From Psammoneis japonica (taxonomy: Eukaryota), in contig QPGO01000104.1 in NCBI GenBank assembly GCA_008632985.1, positions 1 to 64,000 of the forward strand: DNA of 64,000 bases. Direction: 5' to 3'. Shown piece after piece: positions 38,761 to 42,782 of this stretch. Under the pieces are notes generated by a model. The model saw only the letters and a program-made list of their open reading frames with translations. It was not told the DNA's origin and ran no database searches. How positions within the stretch are numbered: position 1 is the first letter of the stretch; every line of letters starts with the position of its first letter. Made by a program: the position numbers and the translations under genes.

Positions 38761-39248
38761 GAGCGGCTCTGCAGTTTGCCGGAGCTCTCGGGAGTGTGGG
38801 CACTTGTGTTGATCCCCCCCTGACTTCACATGTGATTTGGAAGTAATGTCAAACCAAGCTTCAAGAATCCCATCACCATCTCACAATGACAACTTTGAGC
38901 ATGAGCTGACAGAAATTGAAGGCAAATGGCAAGAATTCAAACAACAACTCCTCACTGCTGTCTAAATGGCAGATGAGTCTCCGCTCAGAGACCGTCACAG
39001 GAGCCGAAAGACGTGTAAGTTGGTGTGATCGGGCTGCTGTTGTTGTTCTTGTGAGCCTTGTGGCTTGAAAGCAAACTGCATCGCGCGCGAACGCGCGGAA
39101 CTAAAGCACACAAAACTGTGCGCGGTAAACTAAACAGCGCGCGACATTTCACGCGCACCTAAATCCTGTTCAAATCCTGTCACTCCCCAGTTTGCTTGAG
39201 GAGCCACAGAAACAGATTCGACTTCGGATTGACTGGAGAACTTTGGAG

Positions 39249-41219
39249 TCAAAGCACCAAAACATGAGGAGACAAGAAAGGATCAAGATCCAAGAGCAAC
39301 GTTGCATTCTCCAAGTGGGTCATCTTGAGATGAGCTGCATCTCCCCAATTGCAGATGCCGTTGTGCTTTTCAAAGCTCAAGGCACACTTGGGATCTTGTG
39401 GGATTCCACATCCGCACTTGCAATGGAAGGAGCAAAGCTTGGTCTGGTTGACAATGTTGAACGGCGGGGCAACATTGCAGGACAATGCAAACAAGTTGAC
39501 ATCACCTTCACTTCCTGAGCGAAGGTCATAAAGACTGATGGCCGTCTGTTGGTTCTTGGGATGGTTGCCACACTGGGCTGCTGCTAGAAAAACAGAGCAG
39601 TGCTCGTGCAGGGTGGCATGGCGTTTGCACGAAGCGGGGAACAGAGCAAGCATGAGTTCAAAGGCACAAGCGGTGGTCTTGTGTTCCACCAATCTGATTG
39701 CAAGCTCAGCTGCATCTCCTGAGAGACTGATCCAATTGGAGAAACGAGTCTCAATTTGCAAGCCTTCGGGGATCGGATTGGAGCAAGACATCTTGTGGTG
39801 CAAGGCTGCAGATGTCTGATTGGGGCAACCAGTCCCGTGCTGCAAGACTTCTGGGATCCAAAAGGACTTGCCAGTCTTGTGACACGAGTCTTCGGGGATC
39901 CAATCAGGAGGCCAAGTCTTGAGGTGCGAGACTTGGGGGATCCAATCAGGAGGCCGAGTCTCGTGGCACAAGACTTGAGGGATCCAATCCGGAGGCCGAG
40001 TCTTGAGGCATGAGACGTGGAGGATCCAATTGGGAGGCCCGGTCTTGAGGCACGAGACGTGGAGAGTCCAGTTGGGAGGCCTGGTCTCAAGGCACGAGAC
40101 TTGGGGCATCCGATCAGGAGGCCCAGTCTCGATGTACGGCACTTGGGGCATCCAATCAGGAGGCCCAGTCTCGAGGCACGAGACTTGAGGCATCCAATCA
40201 GGAGGCCTGGTCTCGAGGTGCGAGACTTGGGACATCCAATCAGGAGACCTGGTCTCGAGGTACGAGACTTGGGGCATCCAATCAGGAGGCCCAGTCTCGA
40301 GGCACGAGACTTGGGGCATCCAATCAGGAGGCCTGGTCTCGAGGTGCGAGACTTGGAGCATCCGGTCAGGAGGCCTGGTCTCATGGTGCAATGCTTGGAG
40401 GATCCGAAGACAACGAAGCTGCTTGGATGTCCTGAACTCCCCATCTGATGAACCGGTTGAACTGTTGTGAACAGATTCAATGACGGGAAAAGGAGGCTCC
40501 CCATCAGGAGATGCGAGAAGCAAGTTGTCATCTCCATCACTTCCCAAACGAAGACTGTGAAGGGTGACAGCGGTCGACACGTGGAGGCTGGCAGCACGTG
40601 GTTTGCGGGGTGCAAAGACTGCAGCTTTGGAAGCCATGGGTGGAGTGTCCCAACTGCTCTCGAAGTGCGGGCCTGTGCAAGGGCTGCAATCCTGCACTGG
40701 GCCGAGGTTGCTTGCAGGCGGGTTGGTCAAGACATGCGGGGCGCGACTGACACCACTTCTAGGGGACACCTGAGTGGCGGCACAGTGCAAGGCTGGTGTC
40801 AAAATGGCACTGGGTTCACCTGGTTTGGATGGCAAGGGACTCGGCACAGGTGCGGGGGGTGCTGCGCCAGTGGCTAGAGAGGTCAAGTAGTCCGGACCAA
40901 GGCGGCAGTTGCGAAATTCCTCGGGTGTGAGCAACTGGGGTTCATTGGTCACATCATCACCGTTGCAAACTTTGACAAAGTAGAAGCTGATCAAAGCTGC
41001 TAGGAGGTTTCTGTGGGTCCGTGGCAAAGGCACTACATTGGCGCCGTCTCTGCAAGTGAGGGCGTCAATTTGGGTGGGCAAGAACGTGAACAGTTCCTCG
41101 CACGATTCAATCCCGTTGATGGACAGGGCAGAATGAAGAGGGCTGTCATCGTCTTGATTGAGCACAGTGCCTAGAATGTGTTTGAAGCTTTCGGTTTGTT
41201 GCTGTCGTGTGAGAACCAT
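39249..41219 (-). CDS. Gag-like ORF with an internal 14-aa repeat array
   Basis: N-terminus FKHILGTVL...SPLHSALSINGI...LTPEEFRNCR resembles diatom copia Gag. Repeats of PPDWMPQVS[Y/C/H]LETR. Confidence 0.7.
   Translation of the reverse strand: MVLTRQQQTESFKHILGTVLNQDDDSPLHSALSINGIESCEELFTFLPTQIDALTCRDGANVVPLPRTHRNLLAALISFYFVKVCNGDDVTNEPQLLTPEEFRNCRLGPDYLTSLATGAAPPAPVPSPLPSKPGEPSAILTPALHCAATQVSPRSGVSRAPHVLTNPPASNLGPVQDCSPCTGPHFESSWDTPPMASKAAVFAPRKPRAASLHVSTAVTLHSLRLGSDGDDNLLLASPDGEPPFPVIESVHNSSTGSSDGEFRTSKQLRCLRILQALHHETRPPDRMLQVSHLETRPPDWMPQVSCLETGPPDWMPQVSYLETRSPDWMSQVSHLETRPPDWMPQVSCLETGPPDWMPQVPYIETGPPDRMPQVSCLETRPPNWTLHVSCLKTGPPNWILHVSCLKTRPPDWIPQVLCHETRPPDWIPQVSHLKTWPPDWIPEDSCHKTGKSFWIPEVLQHGTGCPNQTSAALHHKMSCSNPIPEGLQIETRFSNWISLSGDAAELAIRLVEHKTTACAFELMLALFPASCKRHATLHEHCSVFLAAAQCGNHPKNQQTAISLYDLRSGSEGDVNLFALSCNVAPPFNIVNQTKLCSFHCKCGCGIPQDPKCALSFEKHNGICNWGDAAHLKMTHLENATLLLDLDPFLSPHVLVL
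39895..40385 (-). repeat. 42-bp in-frame tandem repeat, about 12 copies
   Basis: ccaatcaggaggcc..gtctcgagg.acgagacttggggcat recurs every 42 bp. Confidence 0.95.
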
Positions 41220-42782
41220 GACGGAGGACGGTGCAGTAGAAACAAAAGACAGGAACCAATCTAGAGCGCGATCTTGACTCGGAGTTTTGACTTGGAACTT
41301 GGCTTGAAAAAGACTTGACTTGAGCTAGACTTGACTTGAAATCTTGGAGCATCTTAAAATCAGAAGTCGCCGGGCTGTGCTGTCCCGTTCGTTGTCAAGT
41401 GCTAAACTTCCTGTCCGGTCCGTAGAGTTGTGCCGGCACGTCCGAACCCGCAGCCAGCGGCGCTTTGGGTTGCTTGCGAGCGGAGCAGCGGGTTGTGAAC
41501 CCCTGCAGGCAAGCTGACTGGAGGTGGACAAGACCCCCGAACCGTTCTTGTTTTATGTCGGTTGGATTTCCCGATCAGGCTGGCCAGTTGACGTGGGCGT
41601 TGGGCGCTGTGGACGAACGAACAAACGCGGGAAAACACCCTCGCCCCAACGCAGGCTGCAATCACGGCTGCTTGCTCTCACAGTCGTCCTCGTGGACCTG
41701 GCAGAACTGCAGAGCACCAGCAGTCCGGGGTGGATCAGGTGCAATGGACTCAGTGTGCTTGTAGAGTGGCAGCAAAACCGCAGTCCGAAGAGTGGGCACA
41801 AGTTCTTGGCCATGAAGACATGCACACACACACATGTCTTCAGCGATGAAGATCCTTGAACATGCAGGGTTCCTGACCGTCAACCGATGAATGGACACAT
41901 CAAGGGATGAGGATCAAGGACAGACTTGGACATGACCGTTGATGCATGTCTTCAGCGATCAAAGGCAGCACAATCAATCCAGATGTCCAGCGGCAAGGAG
42001 ACTTGACGGTGACGTTAAATTCCTGCCGATGCCTGGTGTTGAATGCGCGCAGACTTGCCGATGTACGCAGAACACATGCGGAGGTCCACGCAGAATTGAA
42101 ATGGCGTCGTCGGTAAATCGACGACGACGATGGCGGTTGCCCAATGGGTTGACAATGAGCAAGACTGTCAATCTGACAGAAATTGAAGGCAAATGGCAAG
42201 AATTCAAACAACAACTCCTTGCTGCTGTCTAAATGGCAGATGAGTCTCCGCTCAGAGACCGTCACAGGAGCCAAAAGACGTGCAAGTCGGCACAATCGGG
42301 CCACTGTTGTTGTTCTTGTGAGCCTTGTGGCTCGAAAGCAAACTACATCGCGCGCGAACGCGCGGAACTAAAGCACACAAAACTGTGCGCGGTAAACTAA
42401 ACAGCGCGCGACATTTCGCGCGCACCCAAATCCTGTTCAAATCCTGTCATGAGCATGAATCTTTGAATTCCCTCAGTGTGGTTCTTGCACTGGGCAACTG
42501 GTCAGCTCCAGATGAAGATGAGAGTTTTGGCCTTCATGCACTGCTGCTGGAGCTCAATTTGCATTGACTCAACAAAATCGCTTCACTTGCACGCGGCTTC
42601 TTTGAGATGTTTGCTCTTGTGGGTGTCCGCATCTGCTGCAAGAGCAGGTCTGTGCATTGTCTTTGTCTTGAGAGCTGAGAGGAGGTTGGAAAGAAAGCAA
42701 ATGGAGATTTTTCCAACTCTTTTTGCAGCTTCTTGAAAGGTCTCCTTTCCTTTTGATTCGCTGCCACTGCTCTTGTTTCCTT

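Follow-up and report, generated by a model that had tools for sequence, protein, structure and literature searches.

Differences restricted to pyrimidine-purine steps between the LTRs of a non-autonomous element suggest regionally targeted hypermutation in a diatom nuclear genome

The DNA analyzed here, hereafter the window, is a stretch of 64,000 nucleotides from Psammoneis japonica (contig QPGO01000104.1, positions 1 to 64,000). It carries an LTR element placed within a block depleted in TA and CG dinucleotides, with the following organization:

33856..44896, no strand: TA/CG-depleted block that holds the element
38902..38906, no strand: left target-site duplication TGAGC, 5 bp
38907..39182, no strand: left LTR, 276 bp, with TG...CA ends
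39183..42173, probably minus strand: internal region of the element, which is non-autonomous; neither RT nor integrase nor protease domains were found
39249..41219, minus strand: open frame of 656 aa without Pfam match, spanning the 42-bp array
39745..40458, no strand: 42-bp tandem array (TRF core 39883-40382, 11.9 copies)
42174..42449, no strand: right LTR, 276 bp
42450..42454, no strand: right target-site duplication TGAGC, 5 bp

The direct terminal repeats (TGACAG...CTGTCA) extend over 276 bp with 94.6% identity, as is characteristic of LTR retrotransposons, and the TGAGC on both sides has the size of their 4-6 bp target-site duplications; its presence at both ends indicates a true insertion. 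Neither gag nor pol was recognized, with 0 Pfam matches in the element frames of at least 120 aa. The element is a non-autonomous derivative of an LTR retrotransposon, in which long frames are to be expected because TA-containing stop codons are rare there. On the minus strand, a purine-rich run ending in GGGGAG adjoins the left LTR; this tract, recognized by eye, and the long minus-strand frame suggest a minus orientation, and in that case the left LTR would probably be the 3' LTR. No TGG-type primer site was seen on inspection by eye. Along the element, the read depth drops from about 357,600 in the LTR to about 6,400 at 40460-40778. One read contig spans both flanks without the element between them.

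The two LTRs (38907-39182 and 42174-42449) were aligned without gaps over 276 columns and compared site by site, as had been proposed in a preliminary description of this DNA. They differ at 15 bases, with 0 indels (p-distance of 5.4% over all sites). All 15 differences are transitions, and each of them falls, in the left as well as in the right copy, on a pyrimidine-purine (YR) dinucleotide. The differing bases form 11 dinucleotide sites among the 72 YR sites of the LTR: four CA/TG, two CA/CG, two CG/TG, two CA/TA and one TA/TG, those with TA being gtgTAag/gtgCAag, acTGca/acTAca and ccTAaa/ccCAaa (columns 110, 172 and 254). YR steps take up 144 of the 276 positions, and none of the 132 remaining positions differs (95% upper bound 2.2%). 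The probability that 15 random positions all fall in YR is about 6e-5, both by simulation and analytically; that of at least four adjacent pairs among the differences is 0.004, and that of finding only transitions, given a 2:1 ts:tv ratio, is 0.002. The preliminary description had counted by eye 11 dinucleotide sites (three TA against CA/TG, four CG against TG/CA and four CA against TG) and had seen no further substitution or indel; the alignment reproduces these counts exactly, with every difference at a TA, CG, TG or CA dinucleotide. It had also proposed a context-specific process that came after the insertion and far outpaced the background, as well as an inflated LTR dating, and both claims are supported by transitions restricted to YR with no change elsewhere. 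Among the products, TG and CA are found in proportions of 6:2 in the left LTR and 1:6 in the right LTR (Fisher p = 0.04), a marginal indication of strand-coherent patches. It should be noted that the pairwise data are mirror-symmetric, and therefore the LTR pair alone gives no direction; at the three TA-variable sites we infer it from elsewhere in the window.

Other copies of the family could be evaluated in four sequencing runs, all from one sample of one study, which may be the sample behind the assembly of the window. The family is very abundant, with an LTR word depth of about 357,600, compared with about 60 in single-copy DNA, and 5237 contigs. A scan of a metagenome with a YR-degenerate LTR pattern gave 0 matches. 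The family state was read at 40 of 425 variant positions; from the 15 differing LTR bases, those listed include three (42273, 42302 and 42303). Inside the element, among the 32 positions listed, the window has CA/TG at 21 where other copies have TA, in 6-100% of the depth.

This abundance leads to an alternative, namely that the LTR differences, in part or in full, were acquired from other family copies through ectopic gene conversion or recombination, so that the YR-only pattern would mirror the polymorphism of the family. The variable sites are clustered, with six of the 11 within 31 bp (permutation p = 0.0095), and within this tract the right LTR carries minority states: A at 42273, shared with about 5% of the family depth as compared to G in 95% (the family majority is CG), and at 42302 the state of 28% of the family. 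Clustered differences in a family of thousands of copies mean that gene conversion could have contributed some of the differences. However, differences are also found beyond the tract (columns 47-48, 160, 172, 245 and 254), the single-copy flanks and the pseudogenes show identical conversion in place, and the same mutational process would still be required to make a family polymorphism that consists only of YR transitions. We consider this explanation unlikely.

About 54% of the window is made up of kb-scale blocks depleted in TA and CG. TA amounts to 4.5 per kb in these blocks versus 41.7 in the normal blocks, and CG to 26.4 versus 54.6. CA+TG is raised (212.7 versus 146.0 per kb) by as much as TA+CG is lost, and total YR stays flat (243.6 versus 242.3 per kb). 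The context of the remaining TA is uneven: only 6 RTAY sites are left in the depleted blocks versus 322 in the normal ones, and 83 YTAR sites versus 187. The two dinucleotides are not always lost together. In block 1-17500, TA is almost gone with CG o/e still at 0.5-0.78, and at 56-60 kb the CG o/e is 0.10. Around the element, the flanks (37625-38959 and 42423-44896) have a (TA+CG)/YR of 0.05-0.07, and conversion is lower in the LTRs and in a MITE-like copy, which appear as islands. Since conversion has gone less far in the element than around it, the process ran both before and after the insertion. Tandem arrays, transposons and pseudogene copies are all present in the depleted blocks, but hardly any repeat could be detected in 55140-62885, and in one duplicated segment the F-box part was spared. 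The Pfam search of 104 frames of the depleted blocks gave only Neprosin and TPR, in addition to three sub-threshold matches (Endonuclease_7, PRP4 and zf_PCFS4).

The direction of change was analyzed in two VOMI paralogues:

30292..31077, plus strand: intact VOMI-domain gene (Pfam 3.3e-23) in a normal block, the unconverted paralogue
42819..43442, plus strand: VOMI pseudogene in the depleted block, the converted paralogue, with four in-frame stops and deletions

From the 50 TA of the gene, only 2 are kept in the pseudogene and 37 (74%) have become CA/TG; from its 61 CG, 6 are kept and 44 (72%) have become CA/TG. The reverse was not observed, as 0 of the 186 CA/TG of the gene are read as TA in the pseudogene. 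The changes from gene to pseudogene comprise 52 T>C, 58 A>G, 43 C>T and 71 G>A. In this saturated pseudogene, runs tests gave no support to strand-coherent patches (p = 0.33 and 0.57). These paralogues bear directly on a RIP-like or other cytosine-only deamination, in which repeats would undergo C>T at their CpA and CpG, with TA as the product and the copies with CA/TG as the pristine ones. The mirror symmetry of the LTR data would allow it, many family copies have TA opposite the CA/TG of the window among the positions listed, and diatoms have DNMT4 enzymes related to fungal RID (PMC9998398). Nevertheless, RIP produces only C:G to T:A transitions, whereas the VOMI pair shows T>C and A>G, and in the neprosin-like frame Tyr codons have turned into TGY/CAY. 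RIP also removes CpA/TpG and creates TpA, and the indices of the window are the inverse of this (TpA/ApT of 0.35 and (CpA+TpG)/(ApC+GpT) of 1.58). The copies rich in TA are the functional ones, as seen in the intact VOMI gene and in the conserved Tyr codons of the neprosin-like frame, and with the absence of any change from CA/TG to TA in the pseudogene this explanation is barely credible.

Two further sets of frames lie in depleted blocks, and the neprosin-like one shows the same direction at the protein level:

10276..11172, plus strand: neprosin-like frame in a TA-depleted block, with conserved Tyr codons turned into Cys, His and Arg
13529..14496, minus strand: TPR_10/TPR_12 repeat frames in a TA-depleted block

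Over 20 homologues, 18 columns of the neprosin-like frame were defined as conserved Tyr. The frame keeps Tyr in just one of them and has Cys (TGY) in eight, His (CAY) in four and Arg (CGC) in two; from the other conserved columns, 107 of 139 are kept. Frames of the depleted block have a single Tyr among 299 residues and a single one among 210, as compared to 1.6-3.6% Tyr in five normal-block frames. In the TPR frames, one repeat position is Y, H or C depending on the unit.

Selection against TA and CG, for example as nuclease targets or by avoidance of stop codons, and with no mutation bias, would be another way to deplete these dinucleotides. Some avoidance of TA is universal, and even the genes in the normal blocks have a TA o/e of 0.3-0.65 according to codon phase. 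But the depletion is strongest in pseudogenes and unannotatable DNA and weakest in intact genes, and the replacement of conserved tyrosines is not adaptive for the protein. It is therefore an extremely unlikely explanation.

Plain methyl-CpG decay, with the TA-variable LTR sites arising by chance and all CA/TG doublets derived from CpG, deserves separate consideration. The concentration of CG>TG/CA in silent or repeated DNA is what such decay predicts, and it is seen in the VOMI pseudogene. Between 8 and 12 of the 15 LTR changes could be written as CpG decay, the family majority at 42273 is CG, and methylation of diatom transposons is established (PMC9998398). However, the decay does not cover the full spectrum: three of the 11 LTR sites involve TA, and it leaves unexplained the nine-fold loss of TA in the blocks, the recoding of Tyr to Cys/His and a block (1-17500) with TA nearly lost and CG mostly kept, in addition to the 18 CpGs that are intact in both LTRs. 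As the only cause, it is highly improbable.

The third line of evidence for the direction comes from a trio of MITE-like copies:

430..826, plus strand: MITE-like copy A, 397 bp with inverted ends, little converted (TA o/e 0.73)
33742..34138, plus strand: MITE-like copy B, 94% identical to A (TA o/e 0.44)
37223..37619, minus strand: MITE-like copy C, the outgroup, a sharp unconverted island (0.55) in depleted flanks

At the sites with TA against CA/TG between copies A and B, TA is in copy A in 10 of 10, and it is shared by the outgroup in six of them, as compared to 10 of 54 control sites. At the sites with CG against TG/CA, CG is present in copy A and in the outgroup in 4 of 4. Every loss of TA and CG in the pair therefore lies on copy B, and changes distributed 14 to 1 on one copy are not clock-like and need copy-specific exposure. 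Apart from the LTRs, young duplicates showed 46 differences in three pairs, from which 44 were transitions and 41 lay in YR; two overlapping tandem pairs (0 differences, hundreds of gap columns) were left out as mis-aligned. A majority-rule polarization of the 42-bp array gave no clear consensus, as its columns switch among CA, TG, CG and TA to saturation. TA and CG had been proposed as the targets and CA/TG as the products, the opposite of RIP, and the three polarity tests, all independent of the LTRs, agree on this point.

A sequencing or assembly artefact, with reads that give the transition partner wherever a base of TA or CG was modified, also had to be weighed. Both affected dinucleotides are palindromic, like methylation sites, and a TG or CA outcome would follow the strand that was read. 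Against this, contigs of run X1, whose depth of about 60 and longest length of 315 kb indicate accurate reads, are about 99% identical to the depleted flank 42455-45061 (other letters at 11/1001, 4/782, 2/408 and 2/396), although X1 may be the assembled sample. In the X1 contigs the family copies also vary in the same classes as the LTR pair, and 74% of TA and 72% of CG converted, plus stops and deletions in a pseudogene, do not resemble an error profile. We regard an artefact as very unlikely. A dinoflagellate origin with 5-hydroxymethyluracil at TpA was considered as well and rejected: the spliced-leader motif gave 0 matches, and the DAGK homologues are from diatoms (best 53% identity).

In this genome there is a process that works in kb-scale blocks in the direction from TA/CG to CA/TG, far faster than other substitutions. 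Conversion is near saturation in the flanks of the element and in the pseudogenes; the element itself is only part-converted, with the process active before and after its insertion. We consider it probable, at roughly three chances in four, that the LTR differences are post-insertion mutations made by a regionally targeted hypermutation of the diatom nuclear genome which converts TpA and CpG to CpA/TpG. TpA would undergo T>C or A>G, and CpG would undergo C>T or G>A. The CpG half would correspond to deamination of 5-methylcytosine in methylated silent DNA, an ordinary process in diatom transposons. As TA was lost in block 1-17500 with CG kept, and CGC codons derived from TAC persist, the TA step appears to be a separate one; it would be sequence-specific, with RTAY favored over YTAR, probably enzymatic, and could reach completion where CpG is mostly kept. 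The chemistry that we favor for it would be deamination of the TpA adenine on either strand, with A converted to inosine and read as G; a modified thymine mispairing with G could be the alternative. Genes in use may be spared because the process does not target active chromatin, or else selection may purge the alleles that are hit.

A more specific proposal, which we hold tentatively and rate somewhat below even odds, is that of an enzyme-driven genome defence which edits DNA at TpA (by adenine deamination or an equivalent, on either strand and with preference for RTAY) alongside CpG decay. It would erase palindromic YR from transposons, pseudogenes and silent DNA, recode Tyr to Cys/His, be a mirror of fungal RIP and have been active after this polymorphic LTR insertion. 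To our knowledge, no natural genome defence based on DNA adenine editing is known. In the literature, covered in main texts and with few subscription journals, no account of a joint TA and CG conversion to CA/TG was found, and hypermutation of this kind does not seem to have been described. If true, RIP-like targeted hypermutation would be documented here for the first time outside fungi, with the opposite chemistry at TpA, and some natural activity would have to introduce A>G or T>C changes into DNA within a defined context. For LTR-divergence dating, pseudogene dating and molecular clocks in this genome, YR sites must be excluded. Besides, half of the sequence lacks TA-containing stop codons, and gene finders will therefore report long open frames there that are false.

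RIP targets duplicated DNA of more than about 400 bp and >80% identity, through a RID/DNMT4-type enzyme and premeiotically. As in our case, the RIP of ascomycete fungi and the RIP-like TpCpG hypermutation of Pucciniomycotina (PMC3318451) densely mutate transposons, duplicated genes and pseudogenes, by transitions only and at specific dinucleotides, over kb-scale tracts; a strong compositional scar and inactivated coding sequences are left behind. In contrast, RIP is C>T only, removing CpA and making TpA, whereas here TpA is removed and CpA/TpG made, T>C and A>G make up about half of the changes, and one copy of a duplicated segment was spared with its neighbor converted. Diatom DNMT4 is described as an enzyme of unknown function (PMC9998398), and the hypermutation offers a concrete phenotype for testing candidate enzymes, including this RID-related one. 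The decay of 5-methyl-CpG in vertebrates, plants and diatoms resembles the CG>TG/CA half, its location in silent DNA and the inflation of LTR ages, but leaves TpA untouched. ADAR-type enzymes carry out A-to-I hyperediting and tRNA adenosine deaminases prefer a 5'-U/T, both on RNA. An A>G change after T/U would yield TA>TG and, on the other strand, TA>CA, as in our case; however, these are RNA enzymes, and the conversion of pseudogenes in place and of intergenic DNA requires action on DNA. APOBEC editing of retroelement cDNA also makes context-specific transitions in LTR elements, in line with the hint of strand coherence in the LTR pair, but it occurs before integration, as G>A on one strand, and leaves the host flanks untouched, whereas here conversion is stronger in the flanks than in the element.

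The left and right LTRs of the element (38907-39182 and 42174-42449) could be aligned without gaps over 276 columns, with 15 different bases. All 15 were transitions and all lay, in the left and right copies alike, within a pyrimidine-purine (YR) dinucleotide, and none of the 132 non-YR positions differed. YR steps cover 52% of the LTR positions, and the chance of 15 random changes all falling inside them is about 6 in 100,000; in addition, at least four adjacent pairs among the differences are expected by chance 0.4% of the time. The variable YR sites were 11 of 72 (CA/TG 4, CA/CG 2, CG/TG 2, CA/TA 2, TA/TG 1), identical to the counts of the preliminary description, which had claimed YR-only differences at 11 sites (4+4+3). 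The choice between CA and TG within the LTRs was weakly strand-coherent (p = 0.04). Part of the differences may have been copied in from other members of the family by gene conversion, as the variable tract is clustered in columns 99-130 of the alignment (p = 0.0095), but this still presupposes the same mutational process.

The LTRs end in TG...CA and a 5-bp duplication, TGAGC, is present on both sides; therefore, this is a genuine LTR insertion. The element (3543 bp) includes a 42-bp tandem array and a 656-aa frame on the minus strand without known family, and none of its long frames matched a reverse transcriptase, an integrase or any other domain in Pfam. We interpret it as an LTR element that is non-autonomous and probably oriented on the minus strand, the orientation being judged from a purine-rich tract adjoining the left LTR. 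Its family is very abundant: in contigs of four runs from one sample, 5237 of which were aligned, word depth was about 357,600 over the LTR versus about 60 in single-copy flank. Over 40460-40778 the depth is down to about 6,400, which means that the bulk of the family shares no more than the LTR-proximal part.

The bias is common to other young duplicates and is no peculiarity of the LTRs. Three duplicate pairs are the youngest in the window: the LTRs, two 397-bp inverted-repeat copies and a tandem duplicate of 441 bp (8734-9622). Together they showed 46 differences, 44 of them transitions and 41 in YR steps. The tandem duplicate is 98.4% identical; its 7 differences are all transitions, 6 in YR steps including one CA/TG doublet. 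Over the whole window, observed/expected values were 0.31 for TA, 0.66 for CG, 1.49 for CA and 1.44 for TG. The bias is regional, with 54% of the window assigned by two-state segmentation to depleted (TA- and CG-poor) blocks:

1007-17440, depleted block with small islands
23129-25096, depleted block
33856-44896, depleted block with islands
55140-62885, depleted block

Dinucleotides per kb in depleted blocks (33.3 kb) and normal blocks (25.2 kb)
TA: depleted 4.5, normal 41.7
CG: depleted 26.4, normal 54.6
CA: depleted 105.1, normal 71.5
TG: depleted 107.6, normal 74.5
All YR: depleted 243.6, normal 242.3

These counts show that TA and CG were swapped one for one for CA and TG. The changes are transitions limited to the two self-complementary YR dinucleotides, TA + CG to CA + TG, in a process that is regional and far faster than other changes. 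Depletion is most extreme at 56-60 kb, a stretch of non-repetitive, complex sequence where observed/expected is 0.02 for TA and 0.10 for CG. A strong positive GC skew marks 36001-38000 (0.49 and 0.31 in 1-kb bins); TG there is about twice CA (73 versus 38 in 36001-36500), and either a strand bias of the conversion or the original composition might account for it. The window contains one N, at 26996.

Because TAA and TAG are nearly gone from the depleted blocks, long open frames are plentiful there on both strands, and gene callers would over-predict. Stop-to-stop frames of at least 120 aa numbered 146 in the window, 104 of them in depleted blocks, and in only three of these 104 did a Pfam match pass the curated cut-off (one Neprosin, two TPR). 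In a depleted block, 5105-5491 on the minus strand weakly matches Recombination endonuclease VII (E = 1.4e-4; 22.1 bits, with a cut-off of 23.6 bits) and may be the remnant of a mobile-element gene.

Pairwise data are blind to C>T at CpR versus T>C at TpR, and polarity was therefore sought in four other places. The first is a comparison of gene and pseudogene. The window holds the following duplications:

29845-33011 and 42707-46362, segmental duplications with VOMI and F-box genes
25525-26637, 27825-28924 and 46738-47757, segmental duplications, three-member family of unknown function

The VOMI-domain gene at 30292-31077 (261 aa, Pfam 3.3e-23) is intact and lies in a normal block, whereas its paralogue at 42819-43442, in a depleted block, has four in-frame stops and deletions. 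Of 50 TA sites in the gene, 2 are kept in the pseudogene and 37 are CA or TG there; of 61 CG sites, 6 are kept and 44 are CA or TG. None of the gene's 186 CA/TG sites turned into TA. A second paralogue pair showed the same trend (TA converted at 19/29, CG at 23/36), and a pair with both members in normal blocks kept CG at 44/59 and TA at 11/31. In saturated sequence, successive sites became CA or TG at random (runs tests, p = 0.33 and 0.57). That the most depleted sequences are pseudogenes contradicts selection against TA and CG. A misreading of modified bases is also unlikely: accurate contigs match the depleted flank at about 99% identity, and the converted pseudogene carries stops and deletions as well. 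The edge of the depletion, at about 44,897, lies within a duplicated segment in which the VOMI pseudogenes were converted and the adjoining F-box gene was spared, which argues against a simple targeting of duplicates.

The second place is the loss of tyrosines, whose codons contain TA. The TA-depleted block 1-17500 retains TPR repeats (1.7e-54) and a frame resembling the neprosins, peptidases more familiar from plants and bacteria:

10276-11172, plus strand, neprosin-family frame (Pfam 3.1e-40); named homologues mostly actinobacterial, best other homologues about 50% identical

Tyrosine makes up 1/299 and 1/210 residues in frames of this block, versus 1.6-3.6% in five normal-block frames. In an alignment with 20 of the 102 neprosin homologues found, the 18 conserved-tyrosine columns hold in the window frame one Tyr, eight Cys (TGY), four His (CAY), two Arg (CGC), two Phe and one Leu, versus 107 of 139 other conserved columns kept. 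Alignment with the solved neprosin gave the same replacements, and one position of the TPR array is Y, H or C depending on the unit.

The third is a MITE-like element of 397 bp with terminal inverted repeats, present in three copies:

430-826, plus strand, copy A
33742-34138, plus strand, copy B
37223-37619, minus strand, outgroup copy

The young copies A and B are 94% identical. Where they differ as TA versus CA/TG, copy A has TA at 10/10 sites; TA is also the outgroup state at 6 of the 10, versus 10/54 where A and B are both CA/TG. At the 4 sites with CG versus TG/CA, both A and the outgroup have CG. TA and CG values fall in series from outgroup (0.90, 1.62) to A (0.73, 0.96), B (0.44, 0.69) and window background (0.31, 0.66). 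Nearly all the YR changes between A and B are on one copy (about 14 to 1); therefore, exposure is copy-specific and not clock-like.

The fourth is the LTR family itself. Among the 40 of 425 family-copy variants listed, 32 lie inside the element, and at 21 of these 32, CA/TG in the window copy stands against TA in other copies (6-100% of depth); the remainder are four CpG-type, six forming three CA/TG doublets, and one outside YR. Position 42273 is G in 95% of the family, so the CA of the right LTR there derives from CG, and TA is present at 42302/42303 in at least 19% of depth. Thus, the direction opposite to repeat-induced point mutation (RIP) of fungi, as first proposed, finds support in all four places, outside the three TA-variable LTR sites.

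Regarding timing, (TA+CG)/YR is 0.05-0.07 in the element flanks (37625-38959 and 42423-44896), 0.40-0.45 in the LTRs and 0.55 in one inverted-repeat copy, whose ends coincide with the island edges. This indicates that conversion of the surroundings preceded the insertion of the elements and went on after it. Since insertion, 3/14 to 11/22 TA copy-sites and 4/44 to 12/52 CG copy-sites have changed in the LTRs, the ranges depending on the assignment of four CA/TG doublets. A contig of one run (X1; depth 60.9) links 38884-38906 directly to 42455 onward without the element. It carries five additional letters where the flanks meet and differs at 11 further letters in 1001; of these 11, five fall within 42581-42596, each of them a transition. 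The contig points to a presence/absence polymorphism or to another strain, and to an insertion that is polymorphic and recent although the LTRs are 5.4% apart. As the four runs come from one sample, maybe the source of the assembly, the contig is a lead and not independent proof. The early interpretation, a context-specific process that acted after insertion, much faster than background, and inflates LTR dating, is supported by the YR-only transitions.

In block 1-17500 nearly all TA is lost, but CG remains at 0.5-0.78 of expectation and CGC codons made from TAC persist, which makes the two halves separable. The TA step depends on a wider context than the dinucleotide: RTAY sites have almost vanished, with 6 in depleted versus 322 in normal blocks, and YTAR sites survive best (83 versus 187); CG survives better in G+C-rich contexts, e.g. 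the CGCGCG runs of the LTR. For the CG half, the probable cause is the usual deamination of 5-methylcytosine where silent DNA is methylated. The other half, at TA, is probably a sequence-specific activity on DNA, most simply adenine deamination at TpA on either strand; alternatively, a modified thymine might mispair with G. Genes might escape through a process that leaves active chromatin alone, or through the loss of hit alleles. The closest homologues of the window's diacylglycerol-kinase gene are from diatoms, with pennate species first (47-53% identity) and centric ones at about 38-40%; a dinoflagellate with modified thymine was rejected on these homologues and on 0 matches to the spliced-leader motif.

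The LTR pair is one readout of a window-wide process that is apparently undescribed: in the full texts searched, with incomplete coverage, conversion of TA and CG together was nowhere described. Its TpA half is without known mechanism. The RID-related DNMT4 enzymes present in diatoms, whose function is unknown (PMC9998398), are a lead, not evidence. CpG decay covers only half of the pattern, and neither APOBEC-type cDNA editing nor ADAR-type RNA editing can act in place on pseudogenes and on the host DNA beside the element. Like RIP, the process is dense, restricted to transitions, dinucleotide-specific and inactivating. However, RIP is C>T only and creates TpA, whereas the process in the window is not C>T only and removes it; TpA/ApT is 0.35 and (CpA+TpG)/(ApC+GpT) is 1.58, the inverse of RIP (indices as defined in PMC3318451).
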